From positions 1 to 32,383 of IMG/VR virus record IMGVR_UViG_2861069343_000002: a stretch of 32,383 nucleotides of DNA; one strand, given 5' to 3'. Shown here piece by piece: positions 1,392-26,258 of this stretch. The stretch is from a virus (taxonomy: Duplodnaviria; Heunggongvirae; Uroviricota; Caudoviricetes). The notes below the pieces were generated by a model. It did no database searches. It had not been told where the DNA came from and worked only from the letters and a program-made list of their open reading frames with translations. Position 1 is the stretch's first letter, and each line of letters begins with the position of its first letter. Both the position numbers and the translations under genes were made by a program.

Positions 1392-1925
1392 TTAAAATAC
1401 GGTGAATACATCACACAGGTCCGATAAAACTTCTCGACAAACATGCCTATGATCGCTGAGCACAGAGTTTATATGCTGAAGTGTTATATACTCTTCATAC
1501 CATTCTTGTGTTACAACATTTTTCAAATTATAGAGCCTGTGAAATGACTCTTTTGCCTCCTGCGAATTAACAAATTGTTGATTATGCCCCATTAACCTCA
1601 TTAAAAACCCCTCCAAACAAAATGGTGAGGATTGAATGATTTGTATGTCTCTATTTCTAGCAGCAGATAGAGCATCAGTAGGTATTGCAAGGTCTGAGTC
1701 AATAAAAACAACTCTTTTATCAAAACTACCAGCATGGTTTATAGCAGCCATTATAGCTGATTTCGGTCCTCCACCGCCGGCATCATCTAACCTAACACTA
1801 AACCCTGCAGTCCTAGTTGTTAAGAGTCGTTTTAAACAATCAGCAAATCTTTTATCAGTAATTCCTTCGCACATCAAAAGCTTAGTTCGTTCAACTCCAC
1901 GCTTTACACGTCTGGGCTTCATCAT
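1392..1925 (-). CDS. RloB-like / TOPRIM-like small protein, partner of the upstream AAA ATPase
   Basis: 177 aa. N-terminal basic stretch then LLMCEGITDKRF (CEGxT[ED] motif as in RloB/DUF4276), later VVFIDSDLA acidic motif. ATG overlaps the ATPase stop (ATGATGA junction at 1922..1925), indicating translational coupling. Confidence 0.5.
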   Translation of the reverse strand: MMKPRRVKRGVERTKLLMCEGITDKRFADCLKRLLTTRTAGFSVRLDDAGGGGPKSAIMAAINHAGSFDKRVVFIDSDLAIPTDALSAARNRDIQIIQSSPFCLEGFLMRLMGHNQQFVNSQEAKESFHRLYNLKNVVTQEWYEEYITLQHINSVLSDHRHVCREVLSDLCDVFTVF

Positions 1926-3196
1926 AAGTCTGGTACTCCTCCAAAAGCACCAGCTAAATATTTAGCCGCAATATTATCGTCGACTCGCGCCTCACTGGAT
2001 GGAAAATCATCAAGTCGATAACATTCACTTCTATTGAATTTTTTCTCAGTAATCAACACACGGTACTTACCCAAATAATTTATCAATTCGGGTTTATGAC
2101 AAGTAAAAATTAACTGTGTATGTAACGGGTTTGTTTCTTTACTGATAAACAACTCTAATATAGGTTTAACCATATGTGGGTGCAAATCATCACCAAGTTC
2201 ATCAATAAAGCATGCTGTTCCTTTTTTCAGACATTGCATAATATTATGCAATCTGATAAATGCACTTTGTGTTCCAGCAGATTCGAATGCAAAGGGTAAC
2301 TCAAACTTGGAACCATCTTCTTTTTCATGAATACCATTTATAATATAATAAACATCCTTCTCACCGTTTATATCAACTTTCTCTTCTTTTTCTATAGTTA
2401 TATCATCTAAACCTAAATCCCATTTGCGTAAAATATTTTTTACACTTTTAAAGGCTACTGGATCTTTATATAAATCCTCCGCTGTCGCACCTAAATCTCC
2501 ATAATCATAGCTATACCTTCCCATAGCATTTACATTAGTAGTACTGCTCATTTTTTCGGCTATATCTATAGCCAAAGGAACACCTACACGGCGAGCTGCA
2601 GAAATTATACTTGTATTAGCAGGAGTTCTCTTACCCTCTAAAAGACCTAAAGGAAAAAGTTCTGCTTTTTCAACATAATCATATTTAATTGTTTTTAACA
2701 GTTCTTCAACTTCTTGATGACTAAAATCATCACTACAATTATTTAACTGTTTCTCATAATTTTCTTTATCCAACTTCCTTTTAAAAACATAGATATTTTT
2801 ATTTTTCTCATTTCTTACATACAATTCTTCTTTAATGACAAAATGGTCGCAGGCCGTAACAACATATGTGTATACTTTTCCATCTAAAACAAAACATATT
2901 TTAATCATACCTGGTTTTGTAAAAGGCCGATTAATGTTTAAATACAGATAATCAGTTACTTTTGCTGGTATAGACCAAAAAAACCAACTCAAGAAAGACA
3001 TTGGTTTAAGGAGTGTTGTCTTACCGGAGGCGTTCGCCCCCATGATAGCAGTAATCAGATTGACCTTGTGTCCATCTACATCTACCCACAGTTCTTTTTT
3101 CTTATCTTTAGCTGTAGTAGTTAGGTCTACGAACCCACCTTCATCTTCAAAGCTACCGATATTCTTAATCTCATACCAAAGTATAGCGTTAGCCAT
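1922..3196 (-). CDS. AAA family ATPase (ABC/AAA_21-like), candidate abortive-infection/defense ATPase
   Basis: 424 aa. Walker A GANASGKTT near N-terminus; Walker B plus H-loop ACFIDELGDDLHPH near C-terminus. Strong SD (AAGAGGGG) before ATG at 3196. AT-rich. Confidence 0.7.
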   Translation of the reverse strand: MANAILWYEIKNIGSFEDEGGFVDLTTTAKDKKKELWVDVDGHKVNLITAIMGANASGKTTLLKPMSFLSWFFWSIPAKVTDYLYLNINRPFTKPGMIKICFVLDGKVYTYVVTACDHFVIKEELYVRNEKNKNIYVFKRKLDKENYEKQLNNCSDDFSHQEVEELLKTIKYDYVEKAELFPLGLLEGKRTPANTSIISAARRVGVPLAIDIAEKMSSTTNVNAMGRYSYDYGDLGATAEDLYKDPVAFKSVKNILRKWDLGLDDITIEKEEKVDINGEKDVYYIINGIHEKEDGSKFELPFAFESAGTQSAFIRLHNIMQCLKKGTACFIDELGDDLHPHMVKPILELFISKETNPLHTQLIFTCHKPELINYLGKYRVLITEKKFNRSECYRLDDFPSSEARVDDNIAAKYLAGAFGGVPDL

Positions 3197-3586: not shown

Positions 3587-6500
3587 TCAATGTTCGCTTC
3601 CTGTTAACTGCCGGACAAGTGCAACCAGTTCGCTTACCTGATTTTCCAGAGTGCTGATCCGGGTGTCTGCTGTTGCCAGATTTTCACGTAGCGTTGTGTT
3701 TTCCTCTTCCAGCGCGGTAACGCGATCATCTGTTTCACGGGCGACCTGAACAAGTAAACCCGTCACGGCGGCGTAGTCAACATTAAGATAGCGCGTTTCT
3801 TCGCGTAGCTCGTTGCCGTCAACGGTCGGGCCTTGCAACTCTTCACCGTAATGAGTAAACGATCCCACAGCTTCTGGTATCGCCTCCATTACTTCCTGTG
3901 CAATAACGCCAGCATAAGGCATCCCGTTTTCCCTGAGCGTGTAGGTGTATCCGTTCATTTTACGGATTGCTTTCGTCGCGTCGCTGATAACGAGAATATC
4001 GTCTTTAAGGTCGCGGTCTGATGACTGATTCAGCGTTGTGCAATTAATAGCGCCATTTACATCAAACAACTGGCCTGCTGACGTTTTTTGCGCATAAAAC
4101 AGATACGCAGCAGACGTGCCAACCTCAAAAACGTTTTGTCGAGTACTGGAACCCCACACCCTGATACCAACTGGTAGTTCTGAATTACCTGAATTAAGTA
4201 AAGCAAAACGATTGCCAGTCCCTGTTTGTTTTCTAATTACTAAATCGGCAGTTGAGTTAACCTCATCTTTGTTGATGGTTAGCGCCTGTGCTGTAGCACC
4301 GTTGACAGTACCGCTTAGTAGTTGCACCGCGCCATCATCGCCATTTAACAGCACTTGAGCGCTGCTTCTGTGGTTTTTAAGGCACAACATTTTTCCCGTG
4401 TTTTTCGATGTACCTACTGACCACGCCGAATTGGTTCCAGTGCTATCAACACCGCGCACAGCACAATTCATACTACTGTAATCTGACGTACTCCCCAGCA
4501 CATCAACACGCCCGCCGCCTAATTTTGATGGAGTCGTCGAGGTTAACGACCTGACGGTTACATCCTGATTCCATCCTGAAACAACTACCTGACTCCACTC
4601 CGTCCAACTTCCATTGACAACAAAGCGAACGTATATGCGTTTTGTGTCGCTGCCAATCAGCGTTTGCATGATCGCATAATCTGAACCCGTAGTTTTACGA
4701 GTAGATTCTACACGTAGCAAAAAGTTACCGCTTACGCCGTCAGGCTTATTGGTAATATATGCACCACCTGCGACAGTTTTGCATTGATAGTATTTAACAG
4801 ATCCAGCCACTGTATTAGCAATGATCAAGTCGTTTAAATCAATAGTCTTGTTGTCAATGGTTTCCGGCTCGATAGATCCCGCCATACCTGCGTTAAATGT
4901 GGCAAGGTCAGAAAAGGTTGTTTTACCGCCTACCGTCACCCCGCTATCGAGTTTTGCTTGTGTGATTACTTTGCTGTTTTTTGTGTGGTCAGAATAACTA
5001 CCAAAATACAAATCACCGTCACCAGCTATACCCAGGTATTTTTGATCAACATCATCAACCTTAAACCCAATGGACAAGTTTTTAATTGTGTTGTTGCTCG
5101 TTAAAACCAAAGGCGTATGCTGAGATCCTTTGATGCTTACCGTAGTGTTATCGGAACTGGTGCTTGTGTTTGCAAATTCTGCGGTGGCTGCGCTGATTTT
5201 GTAAGTTATTTTTAGATTGCGGGCCTCAACCCTCCCGTCGTGGCGAACAATAAAATCACCACTTGATTCACCTTTTGTGTTTTTCGCCCTGATGTGGATT
5301 TCGCCAAGTGATTCGTTGTTTTCAGGCGACCAAACAACGCCGCGCTCGCTTCCGTCGTTGTTCATGAACCACAGATGAGCGGTTCCTTTTGCTGATTTTA
5401 GCCTGATAGATGGCGTTTCTTTCAATATATCAAGATCACCAGACATAACATCGCCGGATTTTTTCACCTGCGCATCGTTAGTTACGTTGCCAAGTCCAAC
5501 ATCCGATTTCGACGGCTTGTTTGCCGAGCCGTATAGCTCATTGATGCTAAAAGTCCCGTTGTTAAGCCGGGCATCGTTGCCGGCATAGATCTTAATCTTC
5601 GCGGTTGAGTAGTCGATATTGATCGCTGACCACGTATCGCCGCACCGCGAGAATATACCAGAACCGTGGCTATAAATGGTCGCCGTGCTTCCGGTCGGCT
5701 TATCACCGCGCCAGAAATGACCACCTTTGTCACGCAGAGCTTTTAAGATCTCTACATCGCTCATCTTGCCGTTTGTTGATATCCCGCTACCGCCAAGACC
5801 GAAAGCGCCTGTAAGCATAGCATTAGAAAGACCCAAATCTGCTTTAGTCGGCTTGTTTAACTGGTCGTAAATCCTTACAACGGGGCTTTCAACATATCCA
5901 GAAGGCGCGGCGGTTTGCTTAACAAATCCGTCTGGAATGTATAATTCCGTGCGTGCCGTCTGCGCCAGTACCGCAACCTTTGCGCCGTTGATAAATGCAC
6001 GCTGGAAGGCCCAAACCTCAATAAAGCCATCATCTTTAACCAGGCCGTAACGCATTTGCATGCTATTGATTAGCCCGGTTGGCCCTAAACGGCGTATACT
6101 CAGGTAACGAGATACATTATCAGCAGTAAGCGAAGAAGGCAGACCGCGCGCCGAGATCTCGATAAAGTCAATGTTTCCGTAAGGGGAGCCGTAGTCACCG
6201 CCGTTAGTAACCATTAGCGTTACATGGCAATTGTTGCTTCCGGGATCGGAAAGTTTCGCGATCTTTATGTAAAAAGACTCATTACCAGTAACAACGGGCC
6301 AATCGTATTGCGTCATCGGGCTGACGAGTCCCCCGACCTTGTCGAGATATTCTTTCGCCTTGTTCTCTGACGCTTTAGCGTTGGTTTCGCTGACCTTTGC
6401 TGCTGACTCACTATTTTTCGCGTTGGTTTCTGATTTTTTGGCTGCTGTCGCGGAATTTGCCGATGCAGTTTGTGAGTCTGCTGCCGCCTGTGCGCTGTTA

Positions 6501-12780: not shown

Positions 12781-14739
12781 TTACGCCGTACATTTCACCA
12801 GACCGCGGTGATCAACTGGCGCGACACCGGCGTCAATACGCACTTTCGTTGTCACGCCATCCACACTGAAGCCCTCCATCTGATCAATATATGGCGTATC
12901 CACACCGTTGAGATAAGCCACTTCAATCGTATCGGAGCCTTTTGACGCAGCCAGGTAGAAGGTGGTCTGGCTGTTATCATCAAGACGAGGCTCTGCAATA
13001 ACGGTCGCAAAATCTTTCACCGGGTTAATAATACCGGCGTTAATGTCAGCCCCCTTGACACTTGAGGAGCGAATGACCTGGTTAGCAACAGACTCCATCG
13101 CCGTCGGTACCAGTACGAACGCAGGACGAATATTCAGATGACGCTCCCCCTCTTTCTGAACGCGCATCAACTGGCGGGCTTTATCCAGCGATGCCACGTC
13201 CATTGCAGCGCTCTCCAGTACGTTTGCATGTTTCGCTTTATCGAACAGACTTACATTATCTGTGGAGATTTTCGGGTTAGACGTCAGAATGGCATAAACC
13301 AGATCGGCAATAGTGGATTTCGCCGCACGGCCCAGTTTCATCGGGACATCGGTCAGCATATTCAGATCATCATTGATAATGGCCTGACGGGTGATACTGA
13401 ACAGCTCGCCATAGGTCGCCAGTGCAATAGTGGCCTGTTTATCTCCGGTGGTGACGTATTTATATTCCGCCCCTTCACGCACCTGACGCAGAGCACTGAA
13501 GCCCCCCATACCCACACGATGGGCAATTTTAAAATCAGACAACTGACCTTTCCGCGTCCACTGTTCATAGGTTTCAGGGGCATCTTCCCAGCCCTGCAGA
13601 ATGGCTTTGTTCGCAACATCCAGCAGAATATTACCGAAGTCAGACGTACTGTGTGTGAACGCCGCACCGACCATCTGCATCGGGTTATAACCGGAAACCC
13701 CAATACCCCGTTCAGTCAGTGACATACGGGCATATTCACGCAGGGTCATCCCGTTGTAGACATTATCACGTTCGGTTTTTTCAAATCCGGCACGCGCCAT
13801 CAGCGCCTGGCGAATCCCGTCCCCCACAAAATTACCGTTACCGGCATAAATATGAGCCGGGGTATTTTTATTGGATGGCGTGGACTCGCGCCCCATCTCG
13901 TTCAACAGCTTTTCACGGGCCTGCTCCAGCGAACATTCAGGATCGGCAAGACACTGAGCCTGCAGCGTCTGATAACGCCCGCCAAACATGGCAAACAGAT
14001 CATTAATACCGTTTACACGCGCTTTTTGCTCTGCCAGTACCTGTGCACGGATGCTGTTTTCATCCACCACGGGTGCTGCTGCCTGCACTGGCGTCCGGGA
14101 GGCTTCAGATTCATTATCCTGTACGCGTGGAGCACTGTTGCGTGGCGGAGTAATCATGTTTCGAATGGATTCCGGCATCTTTTTAAATTCCTCTGTACGT
14201 TTTGACTGAATACATGCCATTGCCTTAACGGCTGGCGTTACCTGATCAGCAAATCCATGTGCCAGACATTCGGCACCGGACATCCAGGTCTCATCCGCCA
14301 GCATGGCAGCAATTTCATCGGTGGTTTTCCCGGTTTTCTGTGCATAAGCGGGTAACAGAACCGCCTCAACTTTATCGAGCAGGTCGGCATAGGTGCGCAT
14401 GTCCTCCGCATCACCGCCCGTAAAGCCAAATGGTTTATGAATCATCATGAAGGTGTTTTCCGGCATAATGACCGGGTTTCCCACCATCGCAATGACCGAC
14501 GCCATTGACGCCGCCACACCGTCGACATAAACGGTAATGGACGCACCATGTGTTTTCAGCGCATTAAAAATGGCGATGCCTTCAAAGACATCGCCACCCG
14601 GTGAATTAATATGGAGATTAATGTGGGTGATATCGCCCAGTGCATTCAGATCACTGATAAACTGCTTCGCTGTAACACCCCAGAAACCAATCTCGTCATA
14701 AATATAAATATCCGCGTCACTCTGGTGACCAGCCTGCAT
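12781..14739 (-). CDS. Prohead protease (ClpP/S49-like) fused to HK97-fold major capsid protein
   Basis: N-terminal DADIYIYDEIGFWGV...INSPGGDVFEG...ASMASVIA serine protease motifs, long C-terminal capsid-like region; first ATG after portal stop chosen (14739); longest ORF extends to 15000. Confidence 0.75.
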   Translation of the reverse strand: MQAGHQSDADIYIYDEIGFWGVTAKQFISDLNALGDITHINLHINSPGGDVFEGIAIFNALKTHGASITVYVDGVAASMASVIAMVGNPVIMPENTFMMIHKPFGFTGGDAEDMRTYADLLDKVEAVLLPAYAQKTGKTTDEIAAMLADETWMSGAECLAHGFADQVTPAVKAMACIQSKRTEEFKKMPESIRNMITPPRNSAPRVQDNESEASRTPVQAAAPVVDENSIRAQVLAEQKARVNGINDLFAMFGGRYQTLQAQCLADPECSLEQAREKLLNEMGRESTPSNKNTPAHIYAGNGNFVGDGIRQALMARAGFEKTERDNVYNGMTLREYARMSLTERGIGVSGYNPMQMVGAAFTHSTSDFGNILLDVANKAILQGWEDAPETYEQWTRKGQLSDFKIAHRVGMGGFSALRQVREGAEYKYVTTGDKQATIALATYGELFSITRQAIINDDLNMLTDVPMKLGRAAKSTIADLVYAILTSNPKISTDNVSLFDKAKHANVLESAAMDVASLDKARQLMRVQKEGERHLNIRPAFVLVPTAMESVANQVIRSSSVKGADINAGIINPVKDFATVIAEPRLDDNSQTTFYLAASKGSDTIEVAYLNGVDTPYIDQMEGFSVDGVTTKVRIDAGVAPVDHRGLVKCTA

Positions 14740-14752
14740 CCTGAACCAGGAA

Positions 14753-16261
14753 TTATTCTTCGGACTGGTCGTCGGTGTGCTGCGGCTCCTGTCGTTTCGT
14801 TGCGGCACTACTGCCTCCTTTATCACTGGCCGGATCGGTATCAAATACCAGATCCAGCTTGCGGTTTTCATCAATTTCGGCCTTGCGCCGACGTTTGACA
14901 TCATCCGGATTACGACCACCAGCACGTACCCAGTCTGATTCTGTCGCCGCTCCACCACGAATCTGGATTTTCCAGGCCTCAGCCTCCTTAACAGGGTCAA
15001 TCCACGGCATCACCGGTCCGGAATACACCGCGGTATACAGTGAAGAACGGTCAAGATCGCGGGGTAGCCTGATAACACCGGATGCCACAGCCTGTTTCAG
15101 CCAGGCACGATACATCGGACGGGTGACGGCACCAATAAACCAGTCCTGCAGGATCAGGTAGCCATCAGTGGATTCAACCAGCTCCTGACGCTGGGCGCTG
15201 TAAGTGCCGTTATAGTTGCGCGCTGTACTGGAAAAACTCAGACGACTGCCCGCCGCCACGGCACGCAACTGACCATTACGAAAAGTTTCAAGGTTAGGAT
15301 TGGGGCGATCCGACTTCACCATTCCGATTTCTTCGCCGGGTTTCAGATCATCGTAAATAATGCCTGGCTGAATGGTAAGCTCGCGTTCCTTATCCTTGCT
15401 GCCATTACCATCCGCTTCATAGCTCTGCCCGTCGCCTTTCCGGATGTACATCCCCAGAGCAGCGGCGATCCTTGCTGCAGTCAGCTCAGAATCTTCATAC
15501 TCTTTCAGAGCACTGAGGCGGATCAGCACACCGGACAATAAAGACGTCCCGCGCATCTGGTGCAGACGGCGAACAAATTTAAGATGCAGCATTCGCTCTG
15601 CATCCACTTCTTTGGTTTCCATCTGCCGTCCGGATACGGGACGGCTTTTATACACCAGATATTTTTCGGGACGCCCCCAGTCATCAACAAACACGCCCTG
15701 ATTCAGCCTGTTGCTCTCATCACTGGTCATGGGAATAAAGTCCGGCTCGAGCGCCTCCAGCCAGAAATGAACACCGGCAGAAGGCGTCAGGCTGTTTATG
15801 CGCCCGGAAACCATCTGGGCAAACACCTCACCATCGCGCAGCCAGGTACGAAGCATCAGACGTTCCAGCATCGGACGGGTAAACTGCCCGGTGACTTCCG
15901 GGCTGACAGACCATTCACTCCATCGGGTGCGAATCTCCGCAGCCAGGTCACGGGCAATGGCCCCATTGCGTAATACCGGATGTGGCTCGACAATAATCCC
16001 GTTTTTCCCCACCACCCGTTCTTCCAGCTTGTCAAATACACCAATAACCAGATCGTGGTTGTTATCAAGGTAACGGGCCTGCTCACGTAACGACACGGCC
16101 CCGTACTGGCTTAACTGGTCGGCAGTTCGGTTCTCCCGTCGGGCTTTGTGTGTCCGCGTCGTTTTTACGGCCTCATAAGCCTGGATCACCGCACGGGAAC
16201 GCAGCCTTGCCGCTTTCCATCCTGGTGAAAAAACGCCAATCACATCATCAAGAATTGCCAT
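14753..16261 (-). CDS. Portal protein (lambda-family portal-like)
   Basis: About 500 aa ORF immediately upstream of the protease-capsid gene; no Walker A motif (argues against terminase); acidic C-terminus. Start uncertain: ATG 16261 (SD GAGG), ATG 16291 (ATGA overlap with endolysin stop) or GTG 16303. Confidence 0.65.
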   Translation of the reverse strand: MAILDDVIGVFSPGWKAARLRSRAVIQAYEAVKTTRTHKARRENRTADQLSQYGAVSLREQARYLDNNHDLVIGVFDKLEERVVGKNGIIVEPHPVLRNGAIARDLAAEIRTRWSEWSVSPEVTGQFTRPMLERLMLRTWLRDGEVFAQMVSGRINSLTPSAGVHFWLEALEPDFIPMTSDESNRLNQGVFVDDWGRPEKYLVYKSRPVSGRQMETKEVDAERMLHLKFVRRLHQMRGTSLLSGVLIRLSALKEYEDSELTAARIAAALGMYIRKGDGQSYEADGNGSKDKERELTIQPGIIYDDLKPGEEIGMVKSDRPNPNLETFRNGQLRAVAAGSRLSFSSTARNYNGTYSAQRQELVESTDGYLILQDWFIGAVTRPMYRAWLKQAVASGVIRLPRDLDRSSLYTAVYSGPVMPWIDPVKEAEAWKIQIRGGAATESDWVRAGGRNPDDVKRRRKAEIDENRKLDLVFDTDPASDKGGSSAATKRQEPQHTDDQSEE

Positions 16262-16287
16262 CAGAACCTCGCCAGCCGGTACTCTGC

Positions 16288-16785
16288 TCATTGTTGCCCC
16301 CACAAACAGACTTCACGCTCAATCTCACGACGAGTCATCAGGCCTTTCCATTGCTTACCGCCAGCGTATATCCAGCGACGTAGCTGGTCACATGCGCCTT
16401 TGATATCGCCCTGGTTTATTTTGCGAAGAAGCGTCGATGTTCTGAAATTACCAGCACCCACGTTGTAGACGAACGAGTAAAGAGCGCCGCGCGTTGTTTC
16501 CGGTATATCGACTTTGATGTACGGGTTAATTTGTCTGGCAACCGTGGCAAGGTCTTTATTCAGGAGGGCTTTGCATTCTGCTTCGGTATACGTTTTACCG
16601 AGCATGATGTCTTTTCCGGTGTGTCCGTGACATACAGTCCATACGCCAACGATATCTTTGTATGGTATGTAGCTGACACCTTCCAGGCCATCGTCACCAC
16701 TTGGGCCAGTGATTAACACTGATGCTATAGCAATTGCTCCGCCACCAATAGCAGCAGCAACTGCTTTTCGTAATGATGGAGGCAT
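16288..16785 (-). CDS. SAR endolysin (GH24 lysozyme with N-terminal signal-anchor-release domain)
   Basis: N-terminal Gly/Ala-rich weakly hydrophobic segment [20 protein letters not shown] followed by lysozyme-like domain; start overlaps pinholin stop by 1 nt. Confidence 0.8.
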
Positions 16786-17000
16786 TATTCACCTCTCGCA
16801 GCCTTGCGCTTATCTTCTTTAATCTTGAAATAAAGGTTTGTCAGGTACGTCAGCAGGCCAAATACCAGACTACCCAGCACACCTATTGCCGCCCACTGTG
16901 AGGGCGTGACTTTATCGAGCAACTGTAAAAACCAGTACCCGGCACTACCTGCTGAGGTGCCATAGGCGACACCCGTTGTTAACTTATCCATGGATTTCAT
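16785..17000 (-). CDS. Pinholin, phage 21 S-like with dual start motif (MKSMDK)
   Basis: [29 protein letters not shown]...[36 protein letters not shown] closely resembles phage 21 S21 (recalled); two in-frame ATGs separated by two codons; SD GAGGTG. Confidence 0.85.
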
Positions 17001-17036
17001 AACCCCACCTCGCAGATGCGGGTGCTGTGTAATGGA

Positions 17037-17061
17037 AATAAAAAGGCCACCTGACGTGGCC
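17037..17061 (-). terminator. Intrinsic terminator between the N6-MTase gene and the lysis cassette
   Basis: Minus-strand GGCCAC-GTCAG-GTGGCC hairpin followed by TTTTTATTT. Confidence 0.45.
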
Positions 17062-17067
17062 ACCAGA

Positions 17068-18120
17068 TTATTTCCCCACCAGCTCGTTTATCTCTTTCAC
17101 TGTCTGGTTAAACCGCTCTGACTCAAGCTCAACACCTAAGGCCCGACGCCCCAGCGCCATTGCTGCTTTTATTGTGGAACCGGATCCCATAAAAAAATCA
17201 GCAACCAGATCACCTGGTCGACTACTGGCATTGATTATTTGCCTGAGCATATCCGCCGGTTTCTCACACGGATGTTTCCCCGGGTAGAACTGAACGGGTT
17301 TATGCATCCAGACATCGGTATAAGGCACGGAGACTGATACGGAGAAATAGCGCCGGAGAGATTTAAACTCATCCAGCAATTCAGAATATTTGCGATTCAG
17401 TGAATCATAAGATGCCACCAGCTGGTGGTGTGGTTGTTCCAGTTGTTGTTCCTGAAACTTCTCTGCCGCTATACGGGAAAACAGTGCCTGTAACTTCCGA
17501 TAGTCAGCCTCATTCGGCAACTGCCACTGACTGGCACCAAACCAGTGGGAAACCATATTTTTCTTACCTGTGGCTTCGGCAATTTGTTTTGCCGTTACAC
17601 CCAGTTCGGCACGAGCATCCCTGAAATACGATATCAGCGGTGCCATTATGTGCTGTTTGAGTTCCCTTTCTTTTGCCGCATAGCCGTCACTTTTGCCGCG
17701 ATATGGTCCCTGGTAATGTTCAGCAAACAGAACGCGCTCTGTGGCAGGAAAATATGCGCGCAGACTTTCTTTATTACACCCATTCCAACGTCCGGACGGC
17801 TTCGCCCAGATGATATGGTTAAGCACGTTGAAACGTTCACGCATCATGATCTCAATATCAGATGCCAGGCGATGCCCACAGAACAGGTAAAGGCTTCCGG
17901 CAGGTTTCAACACCCGCCAGAACTGGGCCAGACAGTGGTCCAGCCACTTAAGGTAATCTTCGTCCCCTTTCCACTGATTGTCCCAACCGTTGGGTTTCAC
18001 CTTGAAGTAAGGCGGATCGGTAACAATCAGGTCAATGGAATCATCAGGCAGGGACTGAATAAAATGCAGGCAATCAGCGTTGATTAAATCAACACTGTTT
18101 ATTTTTACAGTATTTTTCAT
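17068..18120 (-). CDS. DNA N6-adenine (or N4-cytosine) methyltransferase, beta-class, orphan phage MTase
   Basis: Motif IV DPPY near N-terminus (LIVTDPPYF) and AdoMet motif I FMGSGST near C-terminus; 350 aa. Confidence 0.8.
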
Positions 18121-18269
18121 GGATCAGTAAGCGTAACTCTGGTAGGCTCACTCTGCTTTTGCGCTAAAGCAGTGGGCCGTGGTTCGCTTGTGACCAGTAA
18201 GCATGAGCGAATGGCTGGCAGGTGCTACCAACACCCACCAGCCGCCCATTTTCACAAATTAAAAGTCCT

Positions 18270-18464
18270 TCATTGCTGAAGGCGTCTGTAACAGCCGAAC
18301 TGGTAATCTGCCAGCCCCGCCATAACCAACTGGGTCAGTATTAACTGACAGCGTTCGCGTGAAAGATATGTGTTTTGTGCAATCTCCCCGACTGTTGCCG
18401 GTTCGATGCTTAATTCATTAAAAACAACTTTCGCCGTTTCTGTCATATCTTGCTGTTTTAGCAT
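18270..18464 (-). CDS. Hypothetical small protein, possible HTH
   Basis: 64 aa from ATG 18464 with SD AAGGA; segment TVGEIAQNTYLSRERCQL is HTH-like. Weak support. Confidence 0.3.
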   Translation of the reverse strand: MLKQQDMTETAKVVFNELSIEPATVGEIAQNTYLSRERCQLILTQLVMAGLADYQFGCYRRLQQ

Positions 18465-18586
18465 GTCTTTTTTCCTTCTGGTTAACATGACATACCAATA
18501 ACTCTTGTCTAAAAAGCCAGCAAGATAAAAAGTCAGTATTCACGACCACCAGCGTGTTTACCGTACTGCACCAGGTTTACAGGTAC

Positions 18587-18612
18587 AAAAAAACCCGCTC
18601 GACGGCGGGTTT
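18587..18612 (-). terminator. Strong minus-strand intrinsic terminator upstream of the plus-strand cassette
   Basis: Minus-strand AAACCCGC-CGTCGA-GCGGGTTT hairpin followed by TTTTTTT. Confidence 0.5.
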
Positions 18613-18657
18613 AAGTTGTGTGGCGAAGTAACCACTCTTAACACAATACAATACTTT

Positions 18658-18686
18658 TTGCGTACGCGTTATAGTTTTCTTACAAT
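18658..18686 (+). promoter_or_regulatory. Candidate sigma70 promoter of the DUF262-HEPN cassette
   Basis: TTGCGT (18658..18663), 17 nt spacer, TACAAT (18681..18686); SD AAGGAA then ATG at 18713. Confidence 0.3.
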
Positions 18687-18712
18687 CAACTTTCAATTAA
18701 AGGAACGAAAAC

Positions 18713-19873
18713 ATGACTACACTCAAAGAACTCAAAGAAGAGCTTGCTCAGATACAAGATGAACACGCTAAGAACAGAAAAAAGGCTGAAATTGCAGCTT
18801 TAACCGCTTCCGCTGACAATGAAATCAGACTCGCTCAGAGAAACATTGGATACAATGTACGTGAGTGGACCGTTGAAGTCATTATTCAAAAGTATGGTGA
18901 TAATATTGAAAATGACAAAAACGAGCTTTTTATTCCAGATTATCAACGTGATTACAAGTGGGATACAAAAACAGCCTCTCGCTTTATAGAAAGTATTCTA
19001 TTAGACTTTCCAATACCTTACCTTTACATTGCTGATGTATTTAATGAAGACCCTGAATTAGATGGTAGGGTAGAAATCATTGATGGTTCACAACGGATAC
19101 GCTCTATTTATTATTTTTGGAACGATCAATTTGAGTTAAAGGATTTGAAAGAGCTTAAAAGTTTAGAAGGTTTCAAATTTTCAGATCTTTTAGCTAGCCG
19201 CCAAAGAAGATTTTTAAGAGCTTCACTAAGATTTATTGAGTTGAAAGGTGATGTTGAGGAACAACATAGAAGAGATTTATTTGAAAGGATCAACTCAGGT
19301 GTTAAAAGATTAGAAGCGATGGAAGTGAGGCATGGCTCAGATGCTGCTACCTCAATGTTCTATAAAGATGTTGTGACCCCATGCTCAACAAACTCACTTT
19401 TTTCCCAACTAGCTCCATTATCAGACCGGAAACGGTCGAATGGCGATCATCGTGAGTTAGTTTTGAGATTTTTTGCATATTTAAATGATTTAGAAAACTA
19501 TAAGGGATTTGTCCGTCCCTTTATTGATAATTATTTAAATGAACAAGCAGCAGCTGTGACTACTCAACAAGATGTTGATAATTTTAAACATGATTTTGAA
19601 ATGATGCTTGCTTTTGTTGCTACCCATTTCCCTATTGGCTTTAAAAAGACCGCAACAAGTAAAACCACCCCACGAGCCAGATACGAAGCCATTGCCGTGG
19701 GAACTGCACTTGCATTAAAAACTAACCCACAACTCCAGAGTCCAGCCGTACCTGTAGGTGAATGGCTATTTGAAGAGGAATTTGAAACACTTGTTACTGC
19801 TGATAGTGCAAACAATACCAGCCAGCTAAAAAACAGAATCTTTTACGTTAAAAATAAGTTGTTAGGGATTTAA
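18713..19873 (+). CDS. DUF262 (ParB/Srx-like, GmrS-type N-terminal domain) protein
   Basis: 386 aa; hallmark motifs FIPDYQRDYKW and IIDGSQRIRSI (DGQQR variant); no DUF1524/HNH C-terminal domain evident; AT-rich. Confidence 0.75.
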   Translation: MTTLKELKEELAQIQDEHAKNRKKAEIAALTASADNEIRLAQRNIGYNVREWTVEVIIQKYGDNIENDKNELFIPDYQRDYKWDTKTASRFIESILLDFPIPYLYIADVFNEDPELDGRVEIIDGSQRIRSIYYFWNDQFELKDLKELKSLEGFKFSDLLASRQRRFLRASLRFIELKGDVEEQHRRDLFERINSGVKRLEAMEVRHGSDAATSMFYKDVVTPCSTNSLFSQLAPLSDRKRSNGDHRELVLRFFAYLNDLENYKGFVRPFIDNYLNEQAAAVTTQQDVDNFKHDFEMMLAFVATHFPIGFKKTATSKTTPRARYEAIAVGTALALKTNPQLQSPAVPVGEWLFEEEFETLVTADSANNTSQLKNRIFYVKNKLLGI

Positions 19874-19875
19874 AA

Positions 19876-20565
19876 ATGAGTCTAATTGATTTACGAGATG
19901 AATATGAAGAAAGAGCAAGAGACATTATGGAACTGCTTTCTCTTGCATCATCTATAGAGATTCATACTCAGCAGTTAGATCCGCAAGCGCATCAAGATGA
20001 AATAGAATCTAATATCCTAAGGGTAAATATTTTAAAATCATCCGTTCATATGATGCTATATAATCAAGTTGAAAATACTGCCAGAGGTTGCATCGAGTCA
20101 ATTTATGATCATTTACAAGATAATGAGGTGAATTACGCATCACTCAGGGAGAAGCTTCAAGTAAATATATTACATAGAATTGTTTCAGATAATGAAACAG
20201 GGCAATCCCTTTATAAAAAGATAGGCACTGACATTTCCAAAAGAATAATTTCAGCCTCATTGAATATTCGTAAAGAATTCAATGGTAATGTTTGCAAGCC
20301 TGTATTACACAAAATAACGCAGGCTTACGGAATAACTATCGCAAACTCACCTGAATGTAGAAATGGTATTGACTTAGACTTGCTTAAGGATATCAGAAAC
20401 GAACTCGCGCATGGAAGTACTAGCTTCTCTAAAAAGGGGCAAATTGACCCCTTAGAAGAAGTTAAGTCTAGAGCAGAGAGAGTTGATCTATATCTTCGTT
20501 TATTAATAAACTCAACTGAAGATTATATTATCTCTAACGGATATTTATCCCCTCAACATGCCTAA
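19876..20565 (+). CDS. HEPN-domain protein (Rx4H motif), putative RNase effector coupled to the DUF262 gene
   Basis: 229 aa; RNELAH matches HEPN R-x4-6-H; starts 2 nt after the DUF262 stop with SD AGGGA; 3' end overlaps convergent MTase gene by 32 nt. Confidence 0.65.
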   Translation: MSLIDLRDEYEERARDIMELLSLASSIEIHTQQLDPQAHQDEIESNILRVNILKSSVHMMLYNQVENTARGCIESIYDHLQDNEVNYASLREKLQVNILHRIVSDNETGQSLYKKIGTDISKRIISASLNIRKEFNGNVCKPVLHKITQAYGITIANSPECRNGIDLDLLKDIRNELAHGSTSFSKKGQIDPLEEVKSRAERVDLYLRLLINSTEDYIISNGYLSPQHA

Positions 20566-21574
20566 CAAACGTTCTCCCTATTACTTGGCCAATTATAGGG
20601 GGAACAGCATTACCAATCATCGTTCCTAACTTTTGGAATGAAAAAGGCGTATTTTTTCCAATAAATTTATAATCCATAGGAAAAGATTGTAAAATAGCAG
20701 CTTCACGCAAAGTTATTGCTCTATTTTGCTCAGGATGTCCGAATCGCCCATTACCATATCCATAACATTGGGTAGTTATTGTAGGACTAGTATCGTCCCA
20801 AACCATCCGTCCATAAACACTTTTATAGGTAGCACCTGAATGCTTTTTATGGCAATCCGCTCTAATTTCTTCAGGCCAATCATCCCACGTACCACCTGGT
20901 AAAGAGTGCAAGATTCGTTTAAGGTTAATATCCCTTAATTTAGGCGAACGATGCAATGGATCACTTTCGAGTTTCTCCCCTGCACCTATTTTTGGCAACT
21001 GACCAATAGCATCCTTTACTGTAACTTTACGGCTTACTTTTTTTTGATCAAGGCTGATTGGCCCCAATATGGACCCAATTAGAATTAATCTACGTCTATT
21101 TTGAGGCAAGCCATACTCGGAACATTTTACAACGTCGTACCACAGATGATACCCAAGAGTCTTTAATACACTAACAAACTCTTCAAAAACCTTATGATTT
21201 CTAAGTTGAGGAACATTTTCCATAGTCACAAGCTCTGGCATGACATCACTTACAATCCTCTGAAACTCAGATAAAAGACGCCACTTTGTATCATCTTTTC
21301 TGCTATTTGGATTACGATACTTGGAAAACGGTTGGCAAGGGGCACAGCCTGCAAGTAATCTAATATTTCCTTCCTTGAACATAGCAGACACATCGCTGGA
21401 TTGCAGTTCAGTAACTGACTGGTTAATGAACTTCGTTAAGGGATTATTGCTCTCAATAGCGAAACGGCAGGACTCATCAATATCAATGCCATGAGAAACT
21501 TCAATCCCGGCTTTTTTTAGCCCAAAAGTTAAGCCCCCTGCGCCACAAAAAATGTCTACTGCTTGAATGTTCAC
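20534..21574 (-). CDS. DNA cytosine-5 methyltransferase (Dcm-like), first gene of the late operon
   Basis: Motif I DIFCGAGG, motif IV GCAPCQPFS (catalytic PC), motif VI ENV, motif VIII QNRRR, motif X GNAV; GTG start at 21574 with SD GGAGAA. Confidence 0.85.
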   Translation of the reverse strand: MNIQAVDIFCGAGGLTFGLKKAGIEVSHGIDIDESCRFAIESNNPLTKFINQSVTELQSSDVSAMFKEGNIRLLAGCAPCQPFSKYRNPNSRKDDTKWRLLSEFQRIVSDVMPELVTMENVPQLRNHKVFEEFVSVLKTLGYHLWYDVVKCSEYGLPQNRRRLILIGSILGPISLDQKKVSRKVTVKDAIGQLPKIGAGEKLESDPLHRSPKLRDINLKRILHSLPGGTWDDWPEEIRADCHKKHSGATYKSVYGRMVWDDTSPTITTQCYGYGNGRFGHPEQNRAITLREAAILQSFPMDYKFIGKNTPFSFQKLGTMIGNAVPPIIGQVIGRTFVRHVEGINIR

Positions 21575-21600
21575 AAGATTCTCCGTTACTTTACCCTGGT

Positions 21601-21629
21601 ATTATATACACATAAAAGTTGGGAAAGTA
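21601..21629 (-). promoter_or_regulatory. Candidate late promoter (pR'-like) downstream of Q
   Basis: Minus-strand TATAAT (plus attata 21601..21606) in the 79-bp Q-to-MTase gap; -35 poor (TACTTT). Confidence 0.25.
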
Positions 21630-21653
21630 GAATGATTTTACATAGCACTTAAC

Positions 21654-22007
21654 TCATTGTATTAAATAAAAAAATGACAAGCATCCATCAATAAACCCCA
21701 TAGCTGTTTGCATATCTTTTCGAACTGTTCCGTCTGAACATTTCCGCTTCTTTGCAATTGTACGGAGCGAAATGCCAACAACAAAGTGAGCAATTATCAG
21801 CTCATACTCTGCCGGCTTGTATTTACGCAACCTAGCGACACAACCGTCTATTATGATGCCCTCATCATCATCGCACTGAATCCGGGACTTTCTGCCATGA
21901 GGTAAAAGCCGCTTGAAGCCAGCAGCTACCGGTTGCCAGTCCACACCACTGTTTTCTGCAGCAGCCCATGCCCCCCAGCGGTCCAAAACTTCATACATAT
22001 CACGCAT
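21654..22007 (-). CDS. Late gene antiterminator Q-family protein (Phage_antitermQ-like)
   Basis: LDRWGAWAA...W...AAGFKRL...SRIQCDDDEGIIIDGCVARL pattern matches small phage Q proteins as recalled; position before late operon; ATG 22007 with SD GGAGAAAG. Confidence 0.65.
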   Translation of the reverse strand: MRDMYEVLDRWGAWAAAENSGVDWQPVAAGFKRLLPHGRKSRIQCDDDEGIIIDGCVARLRKYKPAEYELIIAHFVVGISLRTIAKKRKCSDGTVRKDMQTAMGFIDGCLSFFYLIQ

Positions 22008-22024
22008 CAACTTTCTCCACAAAA

Positions 22025-25565: not shown

Positions 25566-26258
25566 ATGAACATAGGAAACCGAGTCAGACAACTTCGCCA
25601 GGCGAAGAACATGAAAATCGCCGATCTCGCTGAAGCAATAGGAGTGGATGCGGCGAATATCTCACGCCTGGAAACAGGTAAGCAGAAACAATTCACTGAA
25701 CAAGCCCTGAGTAATATTGCCAGGAGCTTAGGTGTTGATATTGCTGATCTCTTTACCTCAGACGTCAAAAGTAATACTGTATGTAAAAACAGTATTAGTG
25801 AGGATGTTGCGCAGGTGAAGGATGTATTCCGTATTGAAATGCTGGATGTCAGTGCCAGTGCGGGAAATGGCCTTATCCAGGGCGGTGATGTCATTGATGT
25901 GATTCATGCCATTGAATACAGAACTGATAATGCTGTATCGATGTTTGGCGGACGGCCAGCCAATCACATTAAAGTTATCAACGTTCGTGGGGACAGTATG
26001 TGTCCAACCATTGAGCCAGGAGATCTCATCTTCGTTGATGTCAGTATCAATCAGTTTGATGGAGATGGTATCTATGTATTTGGTTTTGATGATAAAATTT
26101 ATGTCAAACGACTGCAAATGATACCTGACAAACTACTGGTGATTTCTGATAACCAGATTTACCGTGAATGGGGAATTACCAGCGAAAATGAACACCGGTT
26201 TATGGTCTTTGGAAAGGTCTTAATCAGCCAGTCACAAACCCTTAAGCGACACAATTAA
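25566..26258 (+). CDS. CI-like repressor (N-terminal HTH plus C-terminal S24 LexA-like peptidase domain)
   Basis: HTH IADLAEAIGVDAANISRLETGK; C-terminal GDSMCPTI (Ser nucleophile) and VKRL (Lys); 230 aa. Confidence 0.85.
   Translation: MNIGNRVRQLRQAKNMKIADLAEAIGVDAANISRLETGKQKQFTEQALSNIARSLGVDIADLFTSDVKSNTVCKNSISEDVAQVKDVFRIEMLDVSASAGNGLIQGGDVIDVIHAIEYRTDNAVSMFGGRPANHIKVINVRGDSMCPTIEPGDLIFVDVSINQFDGDGIYVFGFDDKIYVKRLQMIPDKLLVISDNQIYREWGITSENEHRFMVFGKVLISQSQTLKRHN

Follow-up and report, generated by a model that had tools for sequence, protein, structure and literature searches.

The 32,383-nt viral record IMGVR_UViG_2861069343_000002 (Caudoviricetes; IMG/VR), analysed here over its whole length and called the window, carries two DNA methyltransferase genes of different classes, for an N6-adenine (N6) and a C5-cytosine (C5) enzyme, the second of which runs against a DUF262-HEPN gene pair. 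The locus raises the question whether both enzymes are orphans that protect phage DNA from host restriction, as a preliminary description of the sequence proposed, or whether the C5 enzyme belongs with the adjoining cassette, a link that the same description suspected. Our analysis gives a separate answer for each gene. It appears reasonably probable that the N6 enzyme is an anti-restriction orphan of the phage backbone and that the C5 enzyme is the modification part of a horizontally acquired three-gene defence module. The C5, DUF262 and HEPN genes are inherited together, with their catalytic motifs intact.

The C5 part looks like an uncharacterised, novel form of restriction-modification-like defence that was predicted on paper in 2013. 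What annotation pipelines label a lone "DNA cytosine methyltransferase" is here one of the three genes of a module with a wide distribution. The module is common among Enterobacteriaceae of clinical importance and ranges over E. coli (including ST131), Klebsiella pneumoniae, Enterobacter, Yersinia, Vibrio, Pseudomonas, cyanobacteria and other phyla.

The C5, DUF262 and HEPN genes and their island

Both methyltransferase open reading frames (ORFs) lie exactly where they had been described and match different Pfam families (PF01555 and PF00145; Table 1). All catalytic motifs are present in both. The C5 enzyme has motifs I (FCGAGG), IV (PCQ), VI (ENV), VIII (QxRxR) and X (GNAV), conserved in 32 orthologues, and matches the PADLOC models MTase_II (expectation value, E, 1.2e-88) and DrmMII (7.7e-85). 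DNMT1 and M.HaeIII were its best solved-structure matches (E 1e-24 to 1e-16) and Dcm was weak; no target specificity could be inferred from this comparison. The DUF262 protein, a ParB-like nucleoside triphosphatase (NTPase) with PF03235 as the only Pfam family on its 386 amino acids, matches PADLOC NsnA (E 5.9e-45, residues 14-315) and more weakly PD-T4-2_A (4.6e-27), the match to the SspE and HEC models being confined to the N-terminal motif region; in the fold comparison BrxU and SspE were best. Its motifs QR..W, DGxQR and FxRxN are invariant among orthologues, as is the HEPN motif R174-x4-H179 (Rx4H) in 32 orthologues, while the predicted HEPN structure is of low confidence (predicted local distance difference test, pLDDT, 64.6).

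Table 1. Coordinates of the features of the window, with strand, family matches and remarks
Feature	Position	Strand	Evidence and remarks
C5-cytosine DNA methyltransferase; predicted self-marking component	20534..21574	-	346 amino acids, GTG start; PF00145, E 2.7e-54
DUF262 (ParB-like) NTPase with C-terminal helical domain; predicted reader/sensor	18713..19873	+	PF03235; 386 amino acids
HEPN nuclease, MAE_28990 family; predicted effector	19876..20565	+	PF18737, E 2.9e-17; PF18735, E 1.4e-7
Segment without cdtI homology	18682..21960	.	island and 3' part of Q; blastn break points against cdtI
TGTATATAAT element with perfect -10 hexamer	21601..21610	-	about 20 nt upstream of GGAG ribosome-binding site, about 27 nt upstream of C5 GTG
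Antiterminator Q	21654-22022	-	PF06530, E 5.4e-46; directly upstream of C5 gene
Intrinsic terminator hairpin and T run	18591..18612	-	terminator scan: 8 pairs, 5 G-C
Small winged-helix ORF	18270..18488	-	weak DprA_WH/TrmB matches; RefSeq calls a 64-amino-acid form
N6-adenine methyltransferase, beta-class, M.EcoGII family	17068..18120	-	350 amino acids; PF01555 N6_N4_Mtase, E 2.3e-42
Holin	16785-17063		N6 gene immediately precedes holin
Lysozyme	16288-16785
Portal gene	14753-16303		overlaps lysozyme gene start
CI-like repressor	25566-26258
Integrase	29762-30925

The C5 gene starts 79 nt downstream of Q and is convergent with the DUF262-HEPN cassette, as had been noticed from the sequence, the 3' ends of C5 and HEPN overlapping by 32 nt. 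No classical type II restriction-modification system was detected, no restriction-enzyme Pfam or NCBIfam family being found on any neighbour of either methylase; the sole trace of a restriction endonuclease near them was a marginal PADLOC REase_II match on the DUF262 protein (E 7e-4). The description of both methylases as orphans without a cognate endonuclease thus stands for the lack of a classical restriction endonuclease family and for the N6 enzyme as an orphan, but not for the C5 enzyme, a component of a conserved three-gene module.

The segment 18682-21653 has a GC content of 37% (0.371) against about 52% (0.52) in both flanks. Homology to phage cdtI ends at 18681 and restarts at 21961, inside Q, while homology to the Klebsiella and Yersinia loci covers about 18590-22000 and the 3' two-thirds of Q resemble the Q of these island-bearing loci; Q and the island seem to move together by recombination. 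Among phage records, 210 matched a 5.9-kb query, none with more than 45% coverage and the matches being to the flanks, so the island is absent from the sibling phages of that collection. Every E. coli genome with any match to 18700-21580 holds the entire block (106/106, no partial copies), in two alleles, one at 99% identity or more (33 genomes) and one at about 87% (73 genomes). Prophages of Klebsiella pneumoniae and Yersinia enterocolitica have the three genes, their order unchanged, at the slot from Q to the lysis genes, where the neighbours differ (HicAB in Klebsiella, Mom in Yersinia). One module variant is indexed in 761 collection blocks of Klebsiella pneumoniae, and among plasmids a single Klebsiella record had the complete set, the other matches being distant methylases only.

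In phage cdtI (L086, 2977-4365), the slot of window 18682-21653 is taken by another two-gene cassette (313 and 147 amino acids) on the same strand as DUF262-HEPN, with no match in PADLOC; it may be another accessory or defence pair.

Linkage in distant relatives

We scanned one genome per species (GTDB representatives) for more distant relatives and collected 80 loci with DUF262 homologues (38-59% identity), spanning Gammaproteobacteria, Cyanobacteria, Planctomycetes, Bacteroidales and others. HEPN is directly downstream of DUF262 in 75 of the 80, and a C5 methyltransferase lies within 2.5 kb of the pair in 39. The methylase is an orthologue of the window enzyme (48-57% identity) in 31 complete triads, where it is convergent on HEPN in 26 (17 of them overlapping at the ends), codirectional and upstream in four, and codirectional and downstream in one. 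The suspected link of the C5 enzyme to the cassette is well supported by this comparative genomics, the three genes being co-inherited across phyla.

At four loci (L002, L004, L029, L039), compared with L001, L003, L005, L006, L012 and L017, the place of the methylase is occupied by a second C5 family with 26-31% identity to the first, and both families are found within both DUF262 sub-lineages. Since two unrelated C5 families interchange, the conserved item is a C5 methylase as such. Triads occupy the Q-to-lysis slot of lambdoid phages, the P2 portal/gpA slot in Tatumella and a place beside McrBC in Pseudomonas, which are recognised defence hot spots.

In the last of these loci (L001, Pseudomonas sp. 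M47T1) the McrBC 5-methylcytosine restriction component is at 4541-5821, and a Bro-N gene lies in the roughly 1.1 kb that separate it from the triad downstream. If both McrBC and the triad are active, McrBC would be expected to spare the motif that the C5 enzyme methylates.

The same linkage data bear on the explanation that both methylases are independent anti-restriction orphans of the phage and that the C5 gene came to stand beside an unrelated DUF262-HEPN pair by chance, in a slot for accessory genes. Orphan C5 methylases are common on phages, the Q-to-lysis slot carries varied cargo (the cdtI cassette, HicAB, Mom), and many C5 orthologues occur without DUF262-HEPN (counts below). We nevertheless consider a chance association quite improbable, as the genes stay adjacent in other phyla and outside phages, in many cases with ends that overlap or fused into one operon, the E. 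coli genomes hold the three genes together without exception and a second, unrelated C5 family is found in the same place at other loci.

Comparison with known systems and proposed function

The association of a MAE_28990 HEPN, a ParB (DUF262) protein and a DNA methylase was listed in a survey of HEPN domains, which proposed that HEPN ribonucleases (RNases) linked to restriction-modification are a suicide mechanism in reserve (Anantharaman et al. 2013, PMC3710099). Those operons share with the island the HEPN family PF18737 with Rx4H, the adjacent DUF262 gene and the adjacent DNA methylase, but they are one table line in the survey, with no experiment. The present analysis adds where the genes lie in prophages, their geometry, the interchange of two C5 families and a two-gene clade in cyanobacteria. 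No experimental study of the three-gene module was found in the literature, and its HEPN component is without a model in PADLOC 2.0.

PD-T4-2 of E. coli ECOR65, made of DUF262 and HEPN, is validated against T4 and protects in its native strain (Vassallo et al. 2022, PMC9519451). It likewise has a DUF262 protein followed by a HEPN protein, and the window DUF262 protein matches PD-T4-2_A; however, PD-T4-2 is only 1540 bp long and no methylase was part of the clone, the window HEPN shares only domain-level similarity with it via PF18735 (no match to the PD-T4-2_B models up to E 10), and the window DUF262 is nearer to NsnA. The identification as PD-T4-2 was rejected for the unmatched B component, the different size and the lack of a methylase in the cloned system. 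Menshen (NsnABC) is closer in the DUF262 protein, which is NsnA-like over both domains (DUF262 and ParB-associated DNA-binding domain), but a methylase is not a core gene of Menshen, and this identification was also rejected: the NsnB ABC ATPase and the NsnC inactive-PIN nuclease are absent, no ATPase gene is present in the island and HEPN is the sole downstream gene. The Menshen study reported methylases beside some DUF262 systems and raised the idea that DUF262 might target unmodified DNA.

SspE, GmrSD and BrxU have in common with the window protein a DUF262 NTPase domain with DGxQR and then a helical middle domain, but the effector in the window is a separate HEPN protein, with no DUF1524/HNH nuclease; a GmrSD-type enzyme was rejected because the C-terminal DUF1524 HNH-type domain is absent. 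The coupling of a self-made DNA modification to a DUF262 reader in SspABCD-SspE is the logic that we propose for the module, with the difference that its mark would be 5-methylcytosine and not phosphorothioate. DISARM class 2 is resembled in the DrmMII match of the C5 enzyme, but drmA (helicase), drmB (DUF1998) and drmC (PLD) are not found in or beside the island, where the neighbours are phage genes. A likeness is also seen to GHKL/MORC-like and SNF2 methylase systems, as C5 orthologues adjoin GHKL ATPases, SNF2 helicases and Vsr.

In the proposed module the C5 enzyme would label the resident DNA as self with 5-methylcytosine, the DUF262 ParB-like NTPase would read the methylation state of DNA, and through its control the HEPN nuclease would act on DNA without the mark or shut the infected cell down. 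The read-out could take two forms, to which we give roughly equal weight: unmethylated target sites may set off the effector, like in classical restriction-modification, or methylated self DNA may license or hold DUF262-HEPN, like phosphorothioate for SspE. As the two C5 families exchange freely, a reader unrestricted to a single recognition sequence is somewhat favoured. Should the methylase be the self mark, the module would be a restriction-modification-like system with a ParB-like NTPase as reading head and a HEPN nuclease, both unusual, and it would offer a tractable E. coli case for the reading of DNA modification by DUF262. The methylome of carriers is predicted to show a prophage-borne 5-methylcytosine motif, with the neighbouring M.EcoGII-type gene silent; the C5 enzyme is absent from EC958, the strain of the ST131 methylome paper.

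A dedicated adjacent C5 methylase argues for self-marking and against a cassette that simply attacks methylated DNA. The alternative is a type IV-like DUF262-HEPN pair directed at modified phage DNA (hydroxymethyl- or glucosyl-cytosine), in which the C5 enzyme would not be its self mark and may have another purpose, such as protection from other nucleases or action on incoming DNA. Modified cytosines are recognised via DUF262 in GmrSD and BrxU, Dazbog appears to sense methylated DNA, two-gene forms occur without any adjacent methylase, and PD-T4-2, cloned as such a form, defends against T4, the systems selected with T4 being in general protective against T2 and T6 as well. A reader of modified cytosine that is tightly coupled to a cytosine methylase would, however, risk self-attack; that the genes stay linked, convergently or as an operon, and that one C5 family can stand in for another suggests that cytosine methylation itself is required, and the DUF1524 nuclease that defines GmrSD-type enzymes is absent. 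We regard the type IV-like explanation as unlikely.

Several points weigh against a self-marking three-gene module. Between loci, the identities of the three proteins rise and fall together (r 0.86-0.93, Mantel p <= 0.0005), which speaks for the module, but shared descent alone would produce part of this. In a clade of mostly cyanobacterial loci (L041-L080), DUF262-HEPN is found without an adjacent methylase and adjoins housekeeping genes, often directly downstream of clpB and also beside methionine synthase or cobN; because of this clade and of the two-gene PD-T4-2, the pair is not always in need of a linked methylase. In the reverse test on metagenome loci (L091-L169), DUF262-HEPN adjoins the C5 orthologue in 13 of 33 informative loci and is missing in 20 (about 60%). 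The partners in those 20 loci are a GHKL-type ATPase (12 loci; HATPase_c_3 protein of 555-680 amino acids), a SNF2 helicase (five; about 1040 amino acids), Vsr (nine) and also a NERD-UvrD protein. The C5 family looks like a general modification partner of NTPase-dependent, restriction-like effectors, which fits the DrmMII match. Most characterised standalone DUF262 restriction enzymes (GmrSD, BrxU) attack modified DNA, which fits a type IV activity, and HEPN domains are usually RNases, so that direct DNA restriction is uncertain.

Concerning regulation, the C5 gene had been described as the first late gene. It is the first gene after Q, but it lies upstream of a terminator hairpin that is kept in cdtI and in SfV, whose annotation gives it as the terminator following Q, and therefore it belongs to the leader between Q and this terminator and not to the late operon proper; the hairpin lies beyond the whole island. 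The TGTATATAAT sequence before the C5 gene is invariant in five E. coli, Klebsiella and Yersinia loci, in which the adjoining intergenic bases vary. From this conservation we infer that it is the promoter element of the C5 gene; the promoter scan did not call the TATAAT before the C5 gene (21601-21606), for want of a good -35 hexamer. With its own conserved -10 element and the terminator beyond the whole island, the C5 gene could be transcribed without Q and could be made in the lysogen. After induction, Q-modified polymerase might read through C5, raising its expression, and then run antisense across HEPN and DUF262.

A more specific version, which we put forward as a speculative and rather unlikely one, takes the module as a counterpart of the phosphorothioate Ssp system that uses base methylation, has its functions divided among separate proteins and, in prophages, is wired to the lysis switch. 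DUF262 would read the self 5-methylcytosine largely independently of sequence, which would explain the swap of C5 families, and the HEPN RNase would be held in check until unmethylated replicating foreign DNA or the loss of methylation frees it. At induction, Q-antiterminated transcription from the C5 promoter would boost the methylase and silence DUF262-HEPN by antisense.

The N6 enzyme and the prophage setting

The N6 enzyme has DPPY at residues 34-37 and FMGSGS near residue 310, both aligning with M.EcoGII in the beta-class motif order. Over the full length, 280 of 349 residues are identical to M.EcoGII (80%; 90% positives, two gaps), for which the sequence in supplement file 5 of the SUPREM paper (PMC11551740) was used, and the enzyme is 99.7% identical to orf56 of phage cdtI. 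M.EcoGII and M.EcoGI are non-specific adenine methyltransferases of E. coli O104:H4 prophages that are silent in lysogens (PMC5778455) and are thought to be switched on to overcome host restriction; M.EcoMV, the ST131 homologue, was likewise without transcription (ST131 methylome paper). The window enzyme resembles M.EcoGII in length, motif order, lambdoid prophage home and lack of a nuclease partner, none of the classical restriction endonuclease families being found next to the gene. It is probably a non-sequence-specific adenine methyltransferase, a property carried over by likeness from M.EcoGII, from which the window allele is 20% diverged.

As had been stated, the N6 gene precedes the lysis genes, directly before the holin and lysozyme genes, and its slot is common to SfV, cdtI, mEp460 and phiP27 (winged-helix ORF, then methylase, then holin). 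It is a true orphan, already known biology and an ordinary part of the locus. The role against host restriction that was suggested for both methylases is borne out for this one only, through its M.EcoGII family: as a phage-backbone gene it would be transcribed with the late genes and methylate the replicating phage DNA, leading to escape from host restriction. The winged-helix ORF has counterparts upstream of the methylase in cdtI (orf55), SfV (orf47), phiP27 ("TrmB family regulator") and E. coli prophages, and it may control the M.EcoGII-type methylase gene.

In E. coli ST131 strain 4433 (L089, 5941-6399) the M.EcoGII-type methylase is a truncated pseudogene, while the adjoining C5/HEPN/DUF262 block is intact.

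The window is a lambdoid prophage of the SfV/cdtI/mEp460 group, inserted beside proA, with the protease-capsid, portal and tail genes further left. E. coli AR437 has a region with the island that is identical to the window, in a near-identical prophage at the same tRNA-Thr/proA site with several pseudogenes. No terminase or Rz gene was found between the lysozyme and portal genes (window 12781-16785), and because the portal gene abuts the lysozyme gene in this way, the prophage is probably defective, which weakens the role of protecting progeny DNA here.

This state of the prophage is relevant to an explanation of the island as an addiction module, similar to toxin-antitoxin systems, that stabilises the prophage region, with the methylase as antidote to a HEPN toxin and defence as secondary. 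Both the window and the AR437 prophages look defective and yet have kept islands that are 100% identical, toxin-antitoxin pairs commonly include HEPN toxins and restriction-modification modules are known for selfish behaviour. The module, however, also occupies defence hot spots in phages that look active, as well as a defence island, and its relative PD-T4-2 protects its native strain from phage; addiction as the primary function is in our estimate very unlikely, although addiction and defence are not mutually exclusive.

A second defence cargo was detected at the tail-fibre end of the window (1392-3196, minus strand), a low-GC (35%) pair of genes with a match to AbiL. It encodes a 424-amino-acid AAA_21 ATPase (AbiLi, E 1.1e-65) and a 177-amino-acid protein (AbiLii, E 1.5e-9).

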